A stretch of 45,882 nucleotides of DNA, taken from NCBI GenBank assembly GCA_015487535.1, contig WFPN01000329.1:1-45882 (forward strand), in the 5' to 3' direction. How positions within the stretch are numbered: the stretch's first letter is position 1; each line of letters starts with the position of its first letter. The DNA is from Aquificaceae bacterium (lineage in GTDB: Bacteria; Aquificota; Aquificia; Aquificales; Aquificaceae). A program made the position numbers and the translations under genes. This document shows, in pieces, positions 5,113-19,104 of this stretch. A model generated the notes under the pieces. It was not told the origin of the DNA, searched no databases, and saw only the letters and a program-made list of their open reading frames with translations.

Positions 5113-6228
5113 ATGGAGGTGAAGGAGCAGACCACTTTTAAGATTAAGGCTCCAGCGGACGTTTTACTTTCTGCCCTTGAAAAGCTCCCCTACGGGAAGA
5201 GTGCAGCCTTGCCACTTCTTTCTTACGTCCTTGTGAAGGGAGTAGGCCACAGGGTTTCTTTCAGCTCCACAGACCTTGAGACTTACGGGATGGTAACTGT
5301 GGACAACCCAGGGCCAGTATCTTTTGGTGAGGTGTGTGTTAGCCTCGAAAAGCTGAAAGCCCTTCTGAAGAGCTTCGGCACTTCTGAGGTCAAGCTCGAG
5401 CAGGAAGGGGAGGCCCTTAAGGTAGAAGCGGAAGGCAAGGGGGCGAGATACAAGGTTCCAGGGATCAACCCGGAGGACTTTACGGAGTTCCCCAATATAG
5501 AAGGGGAGCCTGTATGCGGGTTTACCCTGAGGGCGGAGGATCTCAGGGAAGGCCTTGGCAAGACGGAGTTTGCGATTGCAAAAGATGACCTTTCACGGCC
5601 CGGTTTGAGTGGAGTGTGCCTGAGGGGGTTTGGGAACAAGCTCCACATTGTAGGATCTGACGGCCACAGGCTCTCCCTCTTCGAGATCCCCGTTGAAGCT
5701 CCAGAGTTCGTGTCTATACTTCCCTCAGGCGCTGTTAAGGTTCTTTCCAAGCTGAGCGGAGAGGTGAGGGTCAAGAAATTCGAGAAATACATTGTGTTCG
5801 AGGCCCAAGATGTGACCTACACGATCAGGGAGATAGATGTTGGGTACCCAGACTACCTGAGCGTCATCCCTCCAGAGGACAAGTTCGTGTGCATGGTAGA
5901 GCTTTACAGGGACGAACTCAAGGAAGCGCTCGAGAGGATGATGAGGTTCTCTAAAGAGCTCAGGAGGATGGGAGGGATAACTCTCTATGTCAGGGAAGGT
6001 AGGCTCGAGGTGGGATACACAGACCCAGATGAGGGGGAGGGACAGGAGGAGATAGGCCTTACCCATGTGGAGGGGAAGGAGCTGTGGACGGGGTTCAACC
6101 CGAGGTTCATACTCGAGTACCTCAAGAAGGCCGAGTCTGAGAGGGTCTGGATGAAGTTCACAGGAGAGGATACGGCGTGCGTTATGGGGGATGACTTTAC
6201 CTACCTGGTAATGCCGATGAGGATTTAA
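5113..6228 (+). CDS. dnaN: DNA polymerase III beta sliding clamp
   Basis: STDLET, GSDGHRL, YPDYLSVIP, GFNPRFILE, C-terminal YLVMPMRI; 371 aa. Confidence 0.93.
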   Translation: MEVKEQTTFKIKAPADVLLSALEKLPYGKSAALPLLSYVLVKGVGHRVSFSSTDLETYGMVTVDNPGPVSFGEVCVSLEKLKALLKSFGTSEVKLEQEGEALKVEAEGKGARYKVPGINPEDFTEFPNIEGEPVCGFTLRAEDLREGLGKTEFAIAKDDLSRPGLSGVCLRGFGNKLHIVGSDGHRLSLFEIPVEAPEFVSILPSGAVKVLSKLSGEVRVKKFEKYIVFEAQDVTYTIREIDVGYPDYLSVIPPEDKFVCMVELYRDELKEALERMMRFSKELRRMGGITLYVREGRLEVGYTDPDEGEGQEEIGLTHVEGKELWTGFNPRFILEYLKKAESERVWMKFTGEDTACVMGDDFTYLVMPMRI

Positions 6229-6261: not shown

Positions 6262-7437
6262 ATGGGGGATTTGTTTGCTAAAAACGACTTGCAAGTTGGG
6301 AAAGATAAAAAAGAGTTGGAGAAAGATGCTACTAATGAATTGAAGGCTTTTGTGTTGGGTTTACACACTATCAAGGGAGTTGGATGGAAAGCACTAAGGC
6401 ATTTATTCCGAGCCTTAATTCAAGGTGAAGATGTTTTTTCCAGTCGTTCTAAGCTTTCAAAGTTGCTCCACGATGCGAGGGTGCCAAACTCTAAAGAAAT
6501 CGCAATTTCAATAATTGAGTCTTTAGACAAGATAAGGGATATTGGTTATGAGGAATACGAACGATTGAAAGGTATGGGGATAGATTTTCTTGTTGGAAGT
6601 GAGCTACCGGGAAGATTGCAGAACACTAATGGTGGGAAGCCGTATTGGTTGTTTATAGAAGGAGATAAGGAAGTATTTTTAACAGGGGGAAATTTGTTTG
6701 TTGGAATTGTTGGGACACGGAACCCCTCTGCGGAGGCTCAGAGGAGCATAGAAAAAATAGTGTGGTTGTTCAGCCGGTACCCTGTTGTAATAGTTTCAGG
6801 GCTTGCAAAGGGAATTGATTCTTGGGCGCATGCTATTAGCATAAAATCAGGTATAAGGAATATAGCTTTCCTTGGACATGGGCTACAAGTTCATACATCT
6901 AAGGAAAGTCGAGAACTTAGAAAAAAGATAATAGAATCTGGTGGAGCTATTGTTACCGAGTACTTCCCTAAAGAGCGCTACAGTAGGGAAAGATTTTTAC
7001 GTAGGAATAGGCTTATAGCCAGTTATAGTGATATTGTTATCCCTGTACAAGGCCGTGTTCCTGGAGGTACTTACTCTACAGTGTTACATGCATTGAAAAG
7101 CAATAAGCAGGTCATAGGTGTAGAGATGAAAGATAGTCCAATAACCGGATTTCTTAGGGAAAAAGGGTGTAGTGTTGTAGACGTGAACAAGCCTGACGAC
7201 TTGGTGTTACTGGACAAGCTTGTAAGATGCGTCCTTAGAAAGAAAGGTATAGACTTTGATGCTTTATCTTCTTTTAAGAAGAAAATTACGAGGTTGATTG
7301 AGAGGGAACTTTCATACCGGTATGTGGACGAAGAGTTCTATAATGACATACAATCGTTTTTGCGTGATTTGCCAAGATATGTGGAGGAAAAGCTGAGGGG
7401 GAAACATGTGGATCAAGGGGATTATAGTACATCCTGA
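6262..7437 (+). CDS. DprA/Smf-like (SLOG fold) protein, ShosA-like
   Basis: VGIVGTRNPS, IVSGLAKGIDSWAH, FLGHGL, GAIVTEY, FLRRNRLIASYS; visibly AT-rich DNA. Confidence 0.88.
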   Translation: MGDLFAKNDLQVGKDKKELEKDATNELKAFVLGLHTIKGVGWKALRHLFRALIQGEDVFSSRSKLSKLLHDARVPNSKEIAISIIESLDKIRDIGYEEYERLKGMGIDFLVGSELPGRLQNTNGGKPYWLFIEGDKEVFLTGGNLFVGIVGTRNPSAEAQRSIEKIVWLFSRYPVVIVSGLAKGIDSWAHAISIKSGIRNIAFLGHGLQVHTSKESRELRKKIIESGGAIVTEYFPKERYSRERFLRRNRLIASYSDIVIPVQGRVPGGTYSTVLHALKSNKQVIGVEMKDSPITGFLREKGCSVVDVNKPDDLVLLDKLVRCVLRKKGIDFDALSSFKKKITRLIERELSYRYVDEEFYNDIQSFLRDLPRYVEEKLRGKHVDQGDYSTS

Positions 7438-8542
7438 ACTTATACTTAAATGTAGCCAAGACGAATATGACGAACTCCGAAAATTTTTGCTGGATAATAA
7501 TCTACAGCTATTTGGGTTTTCGAATCGGAATTTAAATAAGTACAAACAAGCTACGGAAGATATAGGAGGGGTCTTTATCTCTAAGGTTGATGTAGGGAAA
7601 AACAAGGGGTCTCCTGAGTGGATCCATTATATAGAGAAGCGTTTTGGTATTACTCACAACGAACTGGTGTATATAGGCTATGGAAATAGAAAGCATGATT
7701 GGTATACTGCCATAAACTCATCCGTTTTCTACCTGCACTATGCACCAGAAAAGAAGGTGTCCAAAGATATTAGTAAGTATGTTCTCAGAACGGCAAGTGT
7801 ACAAGGGGCGTTAAAGTTTATAAATGTCTTTCTCAGAGACCCTCCACTTTTCACTTACGAGTTTACTTTTGAAGATGGGACGGAGCTTAGAATTCTTTTC
7901 GATGCTGGGGTTGAGCTAAAAGATGTAAATGGGGAATCATTCTCTCTCCGAGATCTATTTACCTACGACAAGATCTTCCTTTTAGGAAAGAAGCGTAAAA
8001 TAGATGCAAGGAGTATCCTATTTCTCCTTCTTATAGCCCAGTTGTGGAAGGAGGGTATAGCTTCACGGGGCGTAAGGTGGTGCGTATATCCTTCTTCAAA
8101 AAAGGGTAGAGTATCCAAAAATATGGAACCATACCTTAGATTTTTCAGGGGACTGACCGGGTCCTATTATGCCCAAATTTTGAAGCGGTGTAAAAATACG
8201 GTTGATAAGAGCAAGGCTCGTAAAGAAGGTAGGTACCATGAGGTGAGCTTTGATAGAGAAAAAGGTTCACTATGTTTAGATGAGAAGCAAAGTATAAAGG
8301 GCAGAAGGATTATTGTAGTTGACGATTTTTCAACTACTGGTATGTCCTTAGAGGCTGCAAAGCTCCTCTTGAGGAATGCTGGAGCTTCCCAAATAGCCTT
8401 ATGTGCTGTTGGTAAGTATGGTTCAAATCATACTGTATACGATGTTGAAGGCAACATCTCTTGTAATGTTAGGCTTTATCAGAATTTAGGGGCACAAGAA
8501 AGGTTGAAGGAGATAATAAATGAATGTAACGATTTATTTTAA
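7406..8542 (+). CDS. HAD-like + phosphoribosyltransferase protein, ShosT-like
   Basis: C-terminal PRPP-binding motif IIVVDDFSTTGMSL; N-terminal degenerate HAD-like segment (LVYIGYG..HDWYTAINS); overlaps the DprA gene. Confidence 0.75.
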   Translation: MWIKGIIVHPELILKCSQDEYDELRKFLLDNNLQLFGFSNRNLNKYKQATEDIGGVFISKVDVGKNKGSPEWIHYIEKRFGITHNELVYIGYGNRKHDWYTAINSSVFYLHYAPEKKVSKDISKYVLRTASVQGALKFINVFLRDPPLFTYEFTFEDGTELRILFDAGVELKDVNGESFSLRDLFTYDKIFLLGKKRKIDARSILFLLLIAQLWKEGIASRGVRWCVYPSSKKGRVSKNMEPYLRFFRGLTGSYYAQILKRCKNTVDKSKARKEGRYHEVSFDREKGSLCLDEKQSIKGRRIIVVDDFSTTGMSLEAAKLLLRNAGASQIALCAVGKYGSNHTVYDVEGNISCNVRLYQNLGAQERLKEIINECNDLF

Positions 8543-12543: not shown

Positions 12544-13248
12544 ATGAAGAAGATCTACACTTCCTATTACAGCCTTTACTGTTCTAAAACAAGGCTTTTG
12601 AAGTCCAAGAGGCTCGCCGGGGTAAGGATAACTGTAGGGGTGCCGAGTTGGTGTAAGGAGAAGATAGAATACGAGTACCTTAAGCTCGCTCCCTTTGGCG
12701 TTCTTGGGGAAGAAGACTGGGGTGTTTACCGGGAGCTTTACTACAGTCGCATACTCGGCAGGCTTGACCCGAAAAGGGTTTACAGGGAGCTTTTAGAACT
12801 GACAAACCCTTACACCCCGGTCTTGCTCTGCTATGAACCTCCGAAGGAGGGGTACAACTGCCATAGGTGGCTTGTTGCTGAGTGGATGAAGGCTGCTGGT
12901 ATAGAAGTCGAAGAGTTTGGTTACAGGGGCTGGATAGACAAGTGGATTGCTGATCAGAGAAACCTCAAGGTTGCTGTGCCTCAGAGCAGGCAAGGCGATC
13001 TTTTTTCAGATCAGGTTAAAGAGATGGAGAGGAAGGCTAAGGAGAGGGCCAAGTATGTCAAAGTTCTTGGGTGCGAGGGGAGCGTCTGCAGGGTGGAGGG
13101 CAGTACGGGTAATGTTTATGAGGTGGATACGGAGAGAGGAACCTGTACTTGTCCCTTTTTTCAGAACCGTTGGGTCAAGTGCAAGCACATATATGCAGTA
13201 GAGAAGTATTTGGGCAAAGAGATAGAGGTTAAAGAGGTGGCCCGATGA
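12544..13248 (+). CDS. DUF488-like domain fused to a SWIM zinc finger
   Basis: KIYTSYY..., LKLAP, VLLCYE...CHRWLVAEW; C-terminal YEV...CTCP...CKHIYAV; QGDLF in the linker. Confidence 0.7.
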   Translation: MKKIYTSYYSLYCSKTRLLKSKRLAGVRITVGVPSWCKEKIEYEYLKLAPFGVLGEEDWGVYRELYYSRILGRLDPKRVYRELLELTNPYTPVLLCYEPPKEGYNCHRWLVAEWMKAAGIEVEEFGYRGWIDKWIADQRNLKVAVPQSRQGDLFSDQVKEMERKAKERAKYVKVLGCEGSVCRVEGSTGNVYEVDTERGTCTCPFFQNRWVKCKHIYAVEKYLGKEIEVKEVAR

Positions 13249-14657
13249 TATTCTTTGGTGCCCTACGAAAGCCCGAGAAGGCCTTTCTTGCTAAGCTTGG
13301 TATGGAAGGGGTTTTTGATGGAAGGGATGTTCAAGTAATCGGTAGCGGTAGCTTTACCATAGAGCAGACCCTGAGTAAGTTTTCTCCGAAAACAGTTTGC
13401 GGCAACGATATAAGTCTTCTGTCTGTGGTCATAGGGGACTACCTCGTTGGTAGAATGAGGGAAATTAGACTTAAGGACACTCGGGAGGCAGAGGCTTTTA
13501 GACCTTATGTGGAGGAAAGGCTCAACACAGATTCTCTTACTCAGGCTGCAACCATCTTAAGCGTATATCACTACACCGCCTACTTCCCGCTCAGCAATCT
13601 TTACAAAGTGAGGAAATTCAAGCAGGAGCTTTCCAAGTTTGACAAAGTCTTTGAGGGATGTATCGGCGTCCTGAAGGATTTCAAGAGTAAGGTCAGGATA
13701 GATGATTTTGTGGTCAAGGATGGTACGGAACTTGTAGGCGATAAAGAGAAGTTCTACATATGGCATCTGCCCTTCGACGAAGGGGACAGTTACCTTAAAG
13801 ACTACAGGCTTGTGAATGCTGTATTTGATTGGGATGCTCCCGAGTATAAGAAGATGACCAAAGAGAAGAACATATCTTTTTTAAGAAGGTTTGTGGAGGG
13901 AGGTTACGATTTCCTTTTCTTTACCTCTCATTATGTAGATGACTGCAAGGATTTTCTTATAGCTAAGTTCAAATACAGGGAAGGGGATACCGTATATGCT
14001 TACGGTAGAATTGGAAAGGGCAACGGAGTTTACTGGGCAAAAAGGTGGGGCCTCTCTATTAAAGACGGTAGGTACCCCCTTTTGCCTGATGATTTCGAAT
14101 TTGGTGAGGATGTAAATGTGTCTTTCAAGATCGTTAAGAGAGACGTCTTTAATTACTACCGGGAGCTGTTTATAGCTAAGGACAAGGTGAGGTTTTATGG
14201 CAACCCTTCTTCTGGGATACCCGTTCTCCTGTTCGCAAATGGCTGTCTTTTTGGTTTCCTCCTGTTTGCCCAGGATAGGTCCTCTTACAAGTTCGGGAAG
14301 AGGCCTACCGCATTCTTGCTTTCAGACTTCAGGGTAGCTTCTAATGTGCCTCGGCTCTCTAAGCTCGTGGTTATGCTCGCAAAGGCTGCTGAGTTCAAAG
14401 ACATTTATGAGAAAGCTTTTGGGGTTAAGACCGAAGAGATCATGACTGCGGTTTATACGGAGAAGCCTGTGTCTATGAAGTATGAGAGAGGAACAGGGTG
14501 GAGGTGTGTTAATAGGGCAAAGAGAAGATTCGGGGATACTGAGGTTTTTTATCTCACATATAGGGCACCTTTCGGTGAAAAGAGCCTTAGGGAGGAGTAT
14601 CTCCTATGGCTTGAGAAGCACTACAGGAGGGTTAGGCATGGGGCCGCAGAGTCTTGA
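13245..14657 (+). CDS. Adenine-methyltransferase-like Rossmann domain + C-terminal GNAT-like domain; putative DNA-modifying enzyme
   Basis: IGSGSFTIE (motif-I-like), GNDIS, VKDG, HLPF at the motif-IV position; C-terminal LLSDF...RLSKLV...TAVYTEKPVSMKY; adjacent ParB-like gene. Confidence 0.6.
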   Translation: MIFFGALRKPEKAFLAKLGMEGVFDGRDVQVIGSGSFTIEQTLSKFSPKTVCGNDISLLSVVIGDYLVGRMREIRLKDTREAEAFRPYVEERLNTDSLTQAATILSVYHYTAYFPLSNLYKVRKFKQELSKFDKVFEGCIGVLKDFKSKVRIDDFVVKDGTELVGDKEKFYIWHLPFDEGDSYLKDYRLVNAVFDWDAPEYKKMTKEKNISFLRRFVEGGYDFLFFTSHYVDDCKDFLIAKFKYREGDTVYAYGRIGKGNGVYWAKRWGLSIKDGRYPLLPDDFEFGEDVNVSFKIVKRDVFNYYRELFIAKDKVRFYGNPSSGIPVLLFANGCLFGFLLFAQDRSSYKFGKRPTAFLLSDFRVASNVPRLSKLVVMLAKAAEFKDIYEKAFGVKTEEIMTAVYTEKPVSMKYERGTGWRCVNRAKRRFGDTEVFYLTYRAPFGEKSLREEYLLWLEKHYRRVRHGAAES

Positions 14658-15591
14658 AGAGGTTGCGAGGATAGGGAAATTCAAGATAGGGTTCGTTGAC
14701 CCAAGGGATCTTAAGCTCCTTGAAAAGAACGCAAGGTATATGCCTGCGGAGATGTTTGACAGGCTTGTCCAGAACATCAAAAGGGATAAGCAACTCAGTT
14801 CTGTCCCCTTCTGCTACCTTGACCCTGAGAGTGATGAAATGGTCGTGCTTTCAGGGAATCACCGTGTCCGTGCCGCTATTGCTGCTGGGGTTGATAGGAT
14901 TCCCGTAATGTGGAATGCGGAGCCGATGACGGAGGACGAGAGGATAGCTATCCAGCTATCACACAACGCCATACAGGGGATGGATGATCTCCAGATACTC
15001 AAGGACCTGTATGAAAAGATCAATGATATTGAGTTGAGGGAATACTCGGCGGTTGACATAGCCTACGACCTGTCCGATCTGGAGGATGTTGACTCCAAGG
15101 AGATAGAGGCTGAGCTCATTGCTACTCCGGAGTTGCCCGAGAAGACCGTGATCCTACTCTTTACGGACGAAGAGGAGGAGAGGATAAGGAAGGTGCTCGA
15201 GAAGTATGAAGAGAGTATGGTGCTGATAGCCCACAAAGATCAGTACGAGAAGTTCAACGAAATAGTTGCCAAGCTCAGGGAGGAATACGATATCTTCAAC
15301 CTTTCCACGGTTTTCCTGTTGATGATAGAGGGGTTTGACAAGGTCATGGAGGGGGAGAAGAGGTTTGAAGATGTCTATGGGGGAGATATGGACGTTGAGG
15401 GCATGGTTCACTGGAGGATAGGTGGTGCGAAAGGAGTTGTGGACGTGAGAGTGGCAAGGAAGCTTAAGGGCTTCGTTGACAAGTACGGGATCGACGGCGT
15501 TGTTAACATGCTTGAGGAGTATGAGGCCAAGAGGGTTATAGATGAGCACCTTGACAGGGCGGGATTCCCTGATATTGAAGGACTTTCTTAA
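14638..15591 (+). CDS. ParB/Srx N-terminal domain protein
   Basis: KNARYM...LVQNIKRD...VVLSGNHRVRAA...QLSHNAIQG; AGGAGG before ATG 14638. Confidence 0.85.
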   Translation: MGPQSLEEVARIGKFKIGFVDPRDLKLLEKNARYMPAEMFDRLVQNIKRDKQLSSVPFCYLDPESDEMVVLSGNHRVRAAIAAGVDRIPVMWNAEPMTEDERIAIQLSHNAIQGMDDLQILKDLYEKINDIELREYSAVDIAYDLSDLEDVDSKEIEAELIATPELPEKTVILLFTDEEEERIRKVLEKYEESMVLIAHKDQYEKFNEIVAKLREEYDIFNLSTVFLLMIEGFDKVMEGEKRFEDVYGGDMDVEGMVHWRIGGAKGVVDVRVARKLKGFVDKYGIDGVVNMLEEYEAKRVIDEHLDRAGFPDIEGLS

Positions 15592-16429
15592 GAGGTACAG
15601 GGATCAAATAGTATCTCTGCGGAAGTTTCTTAGCCTTTGTCGAGGGATAGATCACTATCTTCTTTCCTTTCCCGTCCTCGCCACATACTACGACCTTCTG
15701 GGGTTGCTTGAAAAGAGGCATGTTGTTTTTTTGGATGGTCTTGTGCTTCTACTTGACAAAAAGGTTGCGGTACACTTTGGGGGAGATTACGACCTTTCCT
15801 CTCTTGAGGGCTGGGTTGTCAAAACCTCTGACAAGCTTTCTTGTGCTGGGAGGACTTTTGTTGAAACTCTGTATGACCTTGAGGAGCTTTTTGACCCTGG
15901 AAGGTACGGGAGAGAGGAGAGGAAGAAGAGGCTAAGGAGGCCTTTGAAGATTATAGAAAAAGACTGTGTTAACGTAAGGGTTTTGGAAGGGGACTGGGTT
16001 AAAAAAGCCATCAAGCTTTCTGAGAGGTGGGAGGAAGAAAAGGTTAAATCTGGAAAAGTTTATGTTCGGGGATTTCCGAAGGGTGAGTTCAGGAGAATGC
16101 TCGAGAGGTTTTTAGTGTGGAGGAAGTTTGACGTGCTGGACGGGTACCTCTTCGGCGTTTTTGTGAAGGATAAACCCTATTACATAGGGGTTGATGTTTT
16201 CATTAACCCTGAGGTGGTCTTCGGGATTTGTGGGTTCGCCCTTTACTTTGACTTTGAGAAAAGCTACGGTAATGAGGCCTTTCTTAGCGAGTGTATGTTC
16301 CTCCAGGGAAGGGGACACAAAAGGCTTAACGTAGGGTTTTCTACTGATAAAGGGGTTCGGAGGTTTAAGGAGAAATGGGTACACAGATCTCTGAAAAGCT
16401 TTCAATACAGGATCTCAAAGATTTCCTAA
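15542..16429 (+). CDS. Fem/MprF(DUF2156)-like GNAT-fold transferase, paralog 1
   Basis: ETLYDL, basic helix RKKRLRR, C-terminal RLNVGFSTDKGVRRFKEKW. Confidence 0.5.
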   Translation: MSTLTGRDSLILKDFLKRYRDQIVSLRKFLSLCRGIDHYLLSFPVLATYYDLLGLLEKRHVVFLDGLVLLLDKKVAVHFGGDYDLSSLEGWVVKTSDKLSCAGRTFVETLYDLEELFDPGRYGREERKKRLRRPLKIIEKDCVNVRVLEGDWVKKAIKLSERWEEEKVKSGKVYVRGFPKGEFRRMLERFLVWRKFDVLDGYLFGVFVKDKPYYIGVDVFINPEVVFGICGFALYFDFEKSYGNEAFLSECMFLQGRGHKRLNVGFSTDKGVRRFKEKWVHRSLKSFQYRISKIS

Positions 16430-17247
16430 AGAAGTACAAGGACAGGGTCGTATCGTTGAAAAAGGTTATAGAGGAATTTCCTCCTTTCCAAGAGCATGCG
16501 TGTTCTTTTCCTGTCAGCTCTCTTTTCCACGACCTTGTGGGGTCTTTAAGAGACGGCTCCGTTATTCTGCTTGACGGGGCTATTGTCTATCTAAAGAGCG
16601 CAACTGTTGTGCTTTACAAAGACATTCTTTACGAGTTCCCTACTGGCTTTCAGATTAAGACGCCGTTTGAGCTCCCGTACAGAAACAGAAAAAAACTTAA
16701 GGAAATTCTCTACCGGTTGCCTGACATCTTCGAGAGGTCTATGTACAGGAATTCTGATGCCTTCAGGAACAGAATGCGGTATTTGAAAAAGCTTGAGAAG
16801 GCGGGATATGCTGAGAGGGATGTGACCAGGGATAACATAGGCGATGCTGTTAAGGTGCACGACGAGTGGGTAAGGTACAAGCTTTCTCTTCCCTCCACCT
16901 TTAAGAAGTCTTTCCCGAAGGCTAAGTACATCTCCATGCTCAGGAACTGCATGAATGCGAGATTGTTCCCCTACAAGGCTCTTGTGGGTTACATAGGCGA
17001 TGAACCTGTGTCTTTGACTCTTTATCTGATCTGGCGTGGGATGGTTTATTCACTTATTGGTATTAGTAAATACTGGGAGCACAAGCACTTGTCCGAAGGA
17101 GTATTTCTCTATCAGGCGAGGAAGCTCTTGGAGGATGGGCACGAATACGTTAATGTTGGGTATGAGCAGAACAGGGGGATAGGTAACTTTAAGCGGGAGA
17201 AGTTTCCGTATATAGAGGTGGCCACGAATATTTACCTTGTCAAATAA
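16375..17247 (+). CDS. Fem/MprF(DUF2156)-like GNAT-fold transferase, paralog 2
   Basis: EILYRL, FRNRMRYL, YVNVGYEQNRGIGNFKREKFP; aligns by eye end to end with paralog 1. Confidence 0.5.
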   Translation: MGTQISEKLSIQDLKDFLKKYKDRVVSLKKVIEEFPPFQEHACSFPVSSLFHDLVGSLRDGSVILLDGAIVYLKSATVVLYKDILYEFPTGFQIKTPFELPYRNRKKLKEILYRLPDIFERSMYRNSDAFRNRMRYLKKLEKAGYAERDVTRDNIGDAVKVHDEWVRYKLSLPSTFKKSFPKAKYISMLRNCMNARLFPYKALVGYIGDEPVSLTLYLIWRGMVYSLIGISKYWEHKHLSEGVFLYQARKLLEDGHEYVNVGYEQNRGIGNFKREKFPYIEVATNIYLVK

Positions 17248-17904: not shown

Positions 17905-18711
17905 GTGGGGTTTGCAGAAGTAATAGAAGAGCTATCCAGGAAAGGGTTTTCAGTTACCGACACTACCCGTGACCTCATAGACACCATTTTTATATCCTTT
18001 CACAACCGTGTGAACACCCTTTTGGGAGAAAGGGACAAGTACGAGGAACTCGAGAAGGAGTACCTGAGGGTTATAGAGCCTTACAAGAAGAGGGGCGTTC
18101 TGGATCTGTTCGTTTCTGCTTTTGCGGGACTTATAAAGGACATGGAGGAAAACCCTTATGAGGACATCCTCGGGGAGTACTACCTGGAGCAAAAGGCGAA
18201 GATCGACAGGCAATACAGGGGACAGTTCTTCACGCCTCCCAACGTGGCGGACTGCATGGTAGAGATAACCTTCTCTCTGAAGGAGATAGAGGAGAAAGGA
18301 GTTATAACCGCCTGTGAACCTGCAGCAGGGGCGGGGATATTTCCCTTGAGAGCTGCGAAATGGCTCGTTCAGAACAAGCTCTCGGTTAGGTCGGTGAGGT
18401 GGACGCTCTGGGAGATAGACCCTGTGTTTTTCAAAATAGCTTACATAAACACGACCCTCTGGGGAATACCTGCGGTTGTGATTCATGGGGACTCTCTGAA
18501 AGGTGAGGCTTTGGGTGTGTATCCGAATCTTCACTTCTTAGTACACCCTGTATTACTTGAAGGGGGAGTAGCTCAACTGGATAGAGCCCGGGGGTTATCC
18601 CCGGAGGTTGGGGGTTCGAGTCCCCCCTCCCCCACGGGTCGAACGGCGCCGTTTATGGAGGAGGGGAAGCTCTCCTCCTCCAGCCCGTTAAAACAGTTGA
18701 GGTTGTTTTGA
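17905..18711 (+). CDS. Truncated HsdM-like N6-adenine methyltransferase family protein lacking NPPY/F
   Basis: DILGEYY, GQFFTP, EPAAGAG, EID, HGDSL; no motif IV; ends in QLRLF. Confidence 0.8.
   Translation: MGFAEVIEELSRKGFSVTDTTRDLIDTIFISFHNRVNTLLGERDKYEELEKEYLRVIEPYKKRGVLDLFVSAFAGLIKDMEENPYEDILGEYYLEQKAKIDRQYRGQFFTPPNVADCMVEITFSLKEIEEKGVITACEPAAGAGIFPLRAAKWLVQNKLSVRSVRWTLWEIDPVFFKIAYINTTLWGIPAVVIHGDSLKGEALGVYPNLHFLVHPVLLEGGVAQLDRARGLSPEVGGSSPPSPTGRTAPFMEEGKLSSSSPLKQLRLF
18562..18634 (+). tRNA. tRNA-like element with an abnormal anticodon arm (tRNA-Arg-like D arm)
   Basis: Acceptor GGGGGAG/CTCCCCC, TA, D arm GCTC-AACTGGATA-GAGC, arm CCGGG-GGTTATC-CCCGG, AGGTT, T arm GGGGG-TTCGAGT-CCCCC, discriminator A; no encoded CCA; nucleotide 26, U33 and purine 37 absent. 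Confidence 0.8.
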
Positions 18712-18723
18712 TGGAGGAGGGTC

Positions 18724-19104
18724 ATGTACACGATGAAGGACTTTATGGAAGACATTTCACTCCTCGACAAGTACATGGAGGATATGCACTTCTCGGATCT
18801 CGATCGCAAGATAAACAGGGAGTTTGTCATCTGGTGCAAGCGTATATACAGCATGGTCGATGCGGTTAACAGGAATCAGGCGGAAGCGCTTTACAACTAC
18901 TTTCAGCTTGGGCTCAAGCACTTCTTCGAGAGACACAGAAGGAGTCTCTACAGGATATGGGACATAAACGTGAGCAGACTTGAAATAGCACTCAGGGTGA
19001 TGGTTGGCTGTAGGCTTACTTCCTTCGCTCTTGAGTGCCATGCGGAAGCAGTAAAGACGCTTTATGAAGGGCTTAGGAAATTAAAGCGAGAGTCGGAGGT
19101 CTAA
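18724..19104 (+). CDS. Hypothetical protein
   Basis: GGAGGAGG RBS. Confidence 0.65.
   Translation: MYTMKDFMEDISLLDKYMEDMHFSDLDRKINREFVIWCKRIYSMVDAVNRNQAEALYNYFQLGLKHFFERHRRSLYRIWDINVSRLEIALRVMVGCRLTSFALECHAEAVKTLYEGLRKLKRESEV

Follow-up and report, generated by a model that had tools for sequence, protein, structure and literature searches.

What is an intact tRNA body with a non-decoding anticodon arm doing inside a protein-coding gene of a phage? The DNA in which this question arises (45,882 nucleotides, called the window from here on) is the whole of contig C329 of an Aquificaceae genome bin that is 79% complete (G000), and it holds a partial myovirus-type phage genome with DnaB, beta clamp, portal, capsid, sheath and baseplate genes (Table 1). 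The sequencing runs that contain window DNA are listed as hydrothermal vent metagenomes, and the window genes read normally in table 11. An earlier note on this locus had favoured a dedicated aminoacyl carrier for two Fem/MprF-like proteins encoded upstream, with an anticodon-nuclease decoy, an RNase P/Z processing signal and an att-site relic as alternatives.

Table 1. Positions of the window features discussed in the text and the basis on which each was assigned.
Feature	Position	Strand	Basis
Beta sliding clamp, phage-encoded	5113..6228	+	Annotation searches
DUF488/SWIM, Dam-like/GNAT fusion and ParB-like genes, candidate DNA-modification module	12544..15591	+	Annotation; context only
Two paralogous Fem/MprF-like (tandem GNAT) genes, 29% identical	15542..17247	+	Structure and sequence matches; context only
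Methyltransferase (MTase)-like ORF, 268 aa	17905..18711	+	Profile and structure matches, alignment, model
tRNA-like cloverleaf	18562..18634	+	ARAGORN, RF00005, minimum-free-energy fold
12-bp hairpin in ORF tail	18656..18682	+	Fold prediction
Second 12-bp predicted hairpin, spanning the QLRLF codons and the stop codon	18685..18714	+	Fold prediction
C-terminal QLRLF, clamp-binding-like motif, downstream of the element in the same frame	18694..18708	+	Alignment, homologue tail count

The element is readily recognised as a tRNA body. ARAGORN made a single tRNA call in the window, a tRNA-Stop(tta), and RF00005 matched the same stretch with 50.9 bits against a gathering threshold of 29 (E 4.1e-8 over the whole window). 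Its minimum-free-energy (MFE) structure is the cloverleaf itself (-41.2 kcal/mol, z -2.1), with a 7-bp acceptor stem, a 4-bp D stem closing a 9-nt D loop that carries A20, a 5-nt variable loop, a 5-bp T stem and A73, and without an encoded CCA. The 22 pairs are Watson-Crick throughout (20 are G:C), and the paired acceptor, D and T stems, U8/A9, the GG of the D loop and the TTCGA that had been described before are all present.

Of the features of a canonical tRNA, the element has the cloverleaf with its 7-bp acceptor, D and T arms, and it lacks base 26 and the standard anticodon arm (5-bp stem, 7-nt loop, U33, purine 37). The section from the D stem to the variable loop counts 17 nt, compared with 18 in host tRNAs, and two readings of it are possible: a 5-bp stem whose loop has G33 and U37, with base 26 missing, or, in line with the MFE structure, a 6-bp stem with a 5-nt UUA-centred loop. 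The anticodon arm is non-decoding under both readings, as had been noted from the missing base 26, U33 and purine 37. Suppression of ochre stop codons was rejected, since the loop cannot decode and the window genes need no recoding, and a match to PYLIS_5 (27.9 bits, compared with a threshold of 60) is attributable to chance. A tRNA-Stop call inside an ORF can be neither suppressor nor junk, which is a warning for annotation.

The gene around the element is equally well defined. Bases 1-72 of the element are exactly codons 220-243 of the MTase-like ORF, with offset 0, and the frame that had been seen to pass through the tRNA body indeed does so; translation of this frame is probable. In the structure model the ORF product corresponds to half of a type I (HsdM-like) methyltransferase fold, and its alignment shows a SAM-binding-type motif that is not followed by an NPPY/F-type catalytic motif. 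Residues 232-268 have a pLDDT below 50 and form a predicted-disordered linker that holds the element. We place the element in a permissive linker between core and tail, because the linker varies freely across the MTase-like family before a clamp-like C-terminus. This C-terminus, QLRLF, resembles the bacterial beta-clamp-binding motif QL(S/D)LF (PMC9690074). A clamp-motif-like sequence occurs in the last 25 residues of 43 of the 199 homologues, a set that includes the window's own protein and four members of its sister cluster, compared with none in a control taken from mid-protein and an average of 0.75 when the tails were shuffled. From sequence, the likely partner of the QLRLF tail would be the beta clamp encoded by the phage itself. 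As a more general observation, clamp-binding-like motifs are frequent at the ends of this truncated HsdM-like family of phage proteins, and the window phage encodes its own beta clamp.

A second copy of the element exists in a relative. The protein P0004, 68% identical to that of the window, has its copy of the element at the equivalent site, preceded by the same Leu-Glu codons and followed by QLSLF, and P0005 (64% identical) has neither the element nor a QLSLF-type tail. DNA of the P0004 type is known from a 30-base loose contig end in run X2, from a mixed consensus and from the peptide; mapping X2 on the host tRNA-Arg to extend the relative's element yielded only a mixed 5' consensus. The P0004 element has an 8-nt D loop without G18/G19 (in two partial views), base 26, a full 5-bp anticodon stem with A:U at 31:39 and a canonical 7-nt loop with a UCA anticodon. 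The earlier statement that only decoding features are lost is hence correct for the window copy and fails for the relative, in which the anticodon loop is canonical and the D-loop GG is gone.

The comparison of the two copies shows what has been kept and what has been free to change. The D loop and the anticodon section measure 9+17 nt in the window and 8+18 nt in P0004, and both arrangements keep the frame; bases 22-30 are identical in the two copies, yet they are read in different frames, a local frameshift across which 0 of 8 residues match by hand count. Over the whole element, 12 of the 24 encoded residues differ between window and P0004 (again counted by hand). Despite this, the P0004 peptide excludes none of the 12 acceptor and T-stem pairs and is compatible with every one; it fixes 5 of them, and pairs 1:72, 4:69, 7:66 and 51:63 are compatible but unconfirmed. 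At 50:64 a compensatory swap turns the G:C of the window into C:G in P0004 and changes two residues. The P0004 peptide also fixes G73, against A73 in the window. Pairing and the T loop are kept between the copies, and the D loop, the anticodon loop, base 1 and the discriminator vary. In P0052, a member of the same cluster, the single residue that differs in the element stretch maps by hand to the unpaired position 26.

A null of random substitutions, which ignores G+C bias and recombination, left all 22 pairs Watson-Crick in 111 of 160,756 trials with 8 changes (1,461 when G:U was allowed) and in 2 of 144,520 with 12 changes; the window and P0004 copies are about 15 substitutions apart, as counted by hand. 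We consider it likely that selection acts on the RNA fold rather than on the peptide, because stems and T loop are kept through a pair swap and a frameshift while half of the encoded residues differ. The preservation of the pairs across two diverged copies also bears out the earlier argument against random decay.

The element has a narrow range, two phage lineages only. No DNA loci of close MTase-like or Fem-like relatives were found in viral_contigs, metagenome_contigs or genome_contigs, and a motif common to both copies gave 0 matches in metagenome_contigs and genome_contigs. The MTase profile matches 3 of 178 phylum genomes, G000 counted, and L100, the better MTase match outside G000, gave no tRNA match. 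A pattern for tRNA-derived tails picked out 5 of the 199 proteins, namely that of the window, three of the P0004 cluster and an unrelated mid-protein match. A viral search for T arms with QLSLF-type codons behind them yielded 120 loci in 49 of 64 parts, and 46 of these loci are tRNA-like; the single locus that passed an open-frame filter is an ordinary tRNA in an array. Codons of this type can hence stand behind a tRNA by chance, and these 120 loci held no further gene with a tRNA and a clamp tail. In X2, the MTase-like and DUF5131 genes are covered by far deeper contigs than the Fem-like genes, a depth that cannot rank genes. In the mostly open-access literature searched, we found no published phage gene with a complete tRNA fold embedded in its reading frame. 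We regard the element as real and unusual, and group it with the tRNA-like mRNA elements.

Where did the tRNA body come from? The element was compared with 114 distinct tRNA sequences, those of the host coming from a MAG that is 79% complete. Outside the D loop and the anticodon section it differs from the host tRNA-Trp(CCA) at 5 positions and from the host tRNA-Arg(ACG) at 8, and its D loop is that of tRNA-Arg(ACG). The longest exact run in the 5' half is 20 nt (bases 7-26), shared with the host tRNA-Arg(ACG), and that in the 3' half is 18 nt, common to Trp and Met tRNAs. It is conceivable that the element is simply a captured tRNA tolerated in the permissive linker, with its stems refreshed by recombination with host tRNAs, or an old att site. 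The freely varying linker would accommodate such a passenger, the host Trp and Arg tRNAs are stop-free in the element's register, and the exact runs mean that patchwise copying from host tRNAs could keep the stems without selection. Moreover, the integrase of a related prophage (G018:C11) adjoins a tRNA-Arg(TCT), far from the element's position, and integration leaves tRNA fragments, partial genes that give rise to aberrant tRNA calls in hyperthermophile mobile DNA, according to PMC9897764. In that account, however, the fragments are half copies identical to the host gene at the edge of the mobile element, whereas here the whole body is present, neither half matches any of the 114 tRNAs fully, and the site lies in a mid-genome accessory block with no integrase adjacent. 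The acceptor strands (2-7 and 66-71) occur in no other of the 114 distinct tRNAs, and the changes in the stems come in pairs. An explanation by capture and tolerance is in our judgement improbable, and the att-site relic of the earlier note in particular is contradicted by the 3' half and by the missing integrase.

We tentatively hypothesise, with less than even confidence, that the element is a cis cleavage signal in the mRNA for the host's protein-only RNase P (HARP). A protein of the HARP family was found in 3 of 3 genomes searched, host bin G000 included, and RNase P RNA in 0 of the same three. HARP gauges how far the T loop lies from the 5' end of the acceptor (PMC12217051), and a HARP signal is preferred because the kept features, the acceptor/T helix and the T loop, match what HARP reads. 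The RNase P/Z processing signal that the earlier note had ranked as an alternative fits better than its favoured carrier, given that the acceptor/T helix is kept and HARP is in the host. A close precedent would be the t-elements of plant mitochondria, tRNA-like folds of coding transcripts that have been put forward as cis-acting sites for cleavage by RNase P and RNase Z (PMC1920247). The window element is likewise a tRNA-like fold within a protein-coding transcript, with an intact acceptor/T helix and the cognate nuclease in the cell; t-elements, however, are found at the ends of organelle mRNAs, whereas the window element lies inside a translated phage frame and its cleavage is only predicted. 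A further comparison is the tRNA-Other of Bacillus cereus, a non-translating pseudo-tRNA linked to a mobile element and proposed as a structural part of a longer RNA (PMC3399842). Both are non-translating tRNA forms; tRNA-Other flanks an island within a regulatory RNA, according to the same source, and the window element is double-coded within an ORF.

Under a HARP signal, a tRNA related to the host tRNA-Trp(CCA) or tRNA-Arg(ACG) would have entered the linker once, and selection would have retained the 12-bp acceptor/T helix and the T loop that HARP measures, leaving the D loop, the anticodon loop and the discriminator free to drift. In a ribosome-free message the cloverleaf would fold and be cut before base 18562, and translating ribosomes would mask the cleavage site. 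Upstream of the cut, the 219-residue core would be encoded by a message lacking both stop codon and clamp tail, and the genes behind would gain a new, structured 5' end; full-length protein would then come only from uncut, translated message, and the MTase-like protein would be lowered relative to its neighbours. If the cut is real, the phage sets gene dosage by exposing its own coding sequence to an enzyme with which the host matures tRNAs, the same 72 bases encode both an RNA structure and a protein tail, and the element is a non-tRNA substrate of HARP of which two natural variants separate what HARP needs (the acceptor/T helix) from what it ignores. Several points speak against it: P0004 lacks G18/G19, which should weaken the elbow, the D arm of the element is predicted to be open at 80 C, and cutting one's own coding sequence is costly.

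The same cut could also serve another end, by freeing a small tRNA-shaped RNA that would titrate an anticodon nuclease used by the host against phages, or some other protein that binds tRNAs. Such a decoy or ligand would agree with a kept body whose anticodon loop differs between the copies (UUA-centred with 5 nt in the window, UCA with 7 nt in P0004), and tailored motif searches turned up other phage tRNA bodies with shrunken arms (L089, L090, L092, L095, L098 and L009). Yet a decoy needs abundance, and no promoter-like site was found on the + strand between 17265 and the element; furthermore, its release destroys the message, and no host target was identified. We regard this use of the RNA as unlikely.

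The fold might, on the other hand, act uncut, with the cloverleaf and the two hairpins downstream slowing the ribosome, stabilising a hot mRNA or gating the next ribosome-binding site. The stretch 18562-18711 has a z of -4.9, compared with -4.7 for the best of 305 tiled 150-nt windows, in a register that was hand-chosen. The 3' arm of the first hairpin can alternatively pair with the next gene's ribosome-binding site (18712-18720); this pairing, at 18656-18721, rests on a 14-nt direct repeat, 56 nt apart, and the swap of partners is a possible translational-coupling switch on the strength of fold prediction. Against an uncut structure, any hairpin would serve, and U8/A9, the helix lengths and the TTCGA loop point instead to a protein that reads tRNAs; the P0004 protein, moreover, lacks the stretch that encodes the first hairpin, and its copy is without the extra hairpins. 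We think it doubtful that the fold serves as structure only. Small deletions occur around 18656-18721 in related contigs. The TGA stop of the ORF is in frame with the next gene's ATG four codons on (18709-18726), and the relative's element has a UCA anticodon, probably a coincidence; in-frame readthrough of this TGA into ORF 18724 was rejected as a 1-in-3 coincidence.

The carrier that the earlier note had preferred would be cut out, receive CCA, be charged (with Arg here) and feed the Fem/MprF-like or the Dam-like/GNAT enzymes. The nearer Fem/MprF-like gene ends 1.3 kb upstream of the element, and the assignment of the upstream pair finds support in the fold of the nearer protein, a tandem GNAT with MprF/DUF2156, aminoacyl-tRNA-dependent peptide synthases and FemX among its best matches; the other is its paralogue. 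However, acetyl-CoA GNAT enzymes match the same fold (model pLDDT 71, 5 sequences). A carrier would also find support in the A20 and A73 of the window copy, which fit ArgRS (A20 is the main determinant in E. coli, according to PMC9976931), and in the absence of any other tRNA-like fold from the window. The synthetase identity set, on the other hand, is not common to the two copies, which differ at positions 1, 20 and 73 and in the anticodon: the window copy has A20 and A73 and lacks C35, and P0004 has no A20 and carries G73 and UCA.

The distribution of the operon counts against a link with the Fem-like genes. Among 89 other genomes of the family, one (G018) has both Fem-like genes, and one more gave a weak, stop-riddled match. 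The prophage in G018:C11 keeps the DUF488, Dam-like/GNAT, ParB, both Fem-like genes and a 124-aa gene at 58-70% identity; there the 124-aa gene is followed directly by the small terminase, and the accessory block with the MTase-like gene is absent. ARAGORN, Rfam and a permissive stem scan found no extra tRNA-like fold in it beyond two canonical tRNAs at the edge, in an assembly that stops short of the prophage end, the contig ending in tail genes. The only operon-keeping relative found (1 of 1) is therefore without the element and its gene, an outcome that the earlier note had itself named as refuting a carrier. The idea of a carrier survives, as an unlikely one, because this test covers one relative and A20 alone is a strong ArgRS signal.

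Known private tRNAs offer partial parallels to a carrier. The non-proteogenic tRNA-Gly of S. aureus keeps its UCC anticodon and charging by GlyRS and differs in the D and T arms (PMC7826273), and like the window element it is a non-translational tRNA form found near genes of the tRNA-dependent transferase kind, there the Fem enzymes and here genes resembling them. Unlike it, the window element has no gene of its own, and it is the anticodon loop that has been lost and the T loop that is kept. The private-tRNA pattern of D and T departures with an intact anticodon is thus not that of the window copy, with its canonical T loop, D-loop GG and aberrant anticodon arm, and the P0004 copy fits it at the D loop and the anticodon.

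A second parallel comes from phage DNA modification, since Mom of phage Mu modifies DNA using Gly-tRNA, as stated in PMC13219725. The window has a homologue of the Dam-like/GNAT gene of the actinophages Jeon, Clawz and Soos, together with a ParB gene. In actinophages an odd tRNA stands directly upstream of homologues of this window gene (13245-14657), as seen in 5 opened of 15 matching records, from sequence for Jeon (L135:11896-11967), Clawz (L136:7766-7839) and Soos (L138:949-1022), from annotation for Megabear and from a gap only for Jollymon. The odd tRNA is annotated as tRNA-Gly(tcc) in Jeon and Megabear and is unannotated in Clawz and Soos (ARAGORN misses it in Clawz), where the same acceptor stem, U73 and CCA are kept and the D and T loops are eroded. 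In the window, by contrast, nothing tRNA-like lies upstream of the Dam-like/GNAT gene; the element is 3.9 kb downstream of it, within a separate accessory gene, and keeps the T loop that the actinophage tRNAs erode. That one RNA stretch is at once linker code for the clamp tail and a host-excised, tailed and charged tRNA that donates amino acids to phage DNA-modifying transferases, with an identity retuned between phages (Arg-like here, Trp-like in P0004), strikes us as very unlikely.

Some further observations concern the wider phage group. The block at 12544-17247 is conserved in G018:C11 ahead of the terminase, and may be an operon for tRNA-dependent DNA modification that includes two additional transferases. 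At 6262-8542 the window has an A+T-richer stretch with one DprA/SLOG-like and one phosphoribosyltransferase gene; this stretch is missing in G018:C11 and is likely a defence-type moron. The related prophage itself (G018:C11 25733-73923, L031-L033) sits in a 99% complete genome of the same genus, next to tRNA-Pro(TGG) and tRNA-Arg(TCT) and with a tyrosine-integrase-like gene, and is a possible experimental handle on the phage group. Viral tRNA bodies with short or missing anticodon arms occur in L089, L090, L092, L098 (about 1495-1570), L091, L095 and L009:5986-6052. For L090 and L098 the tRNA fold begins at the stop codon of a gene of 376-378 aa, and the arm in L092 is much like that of the window element.
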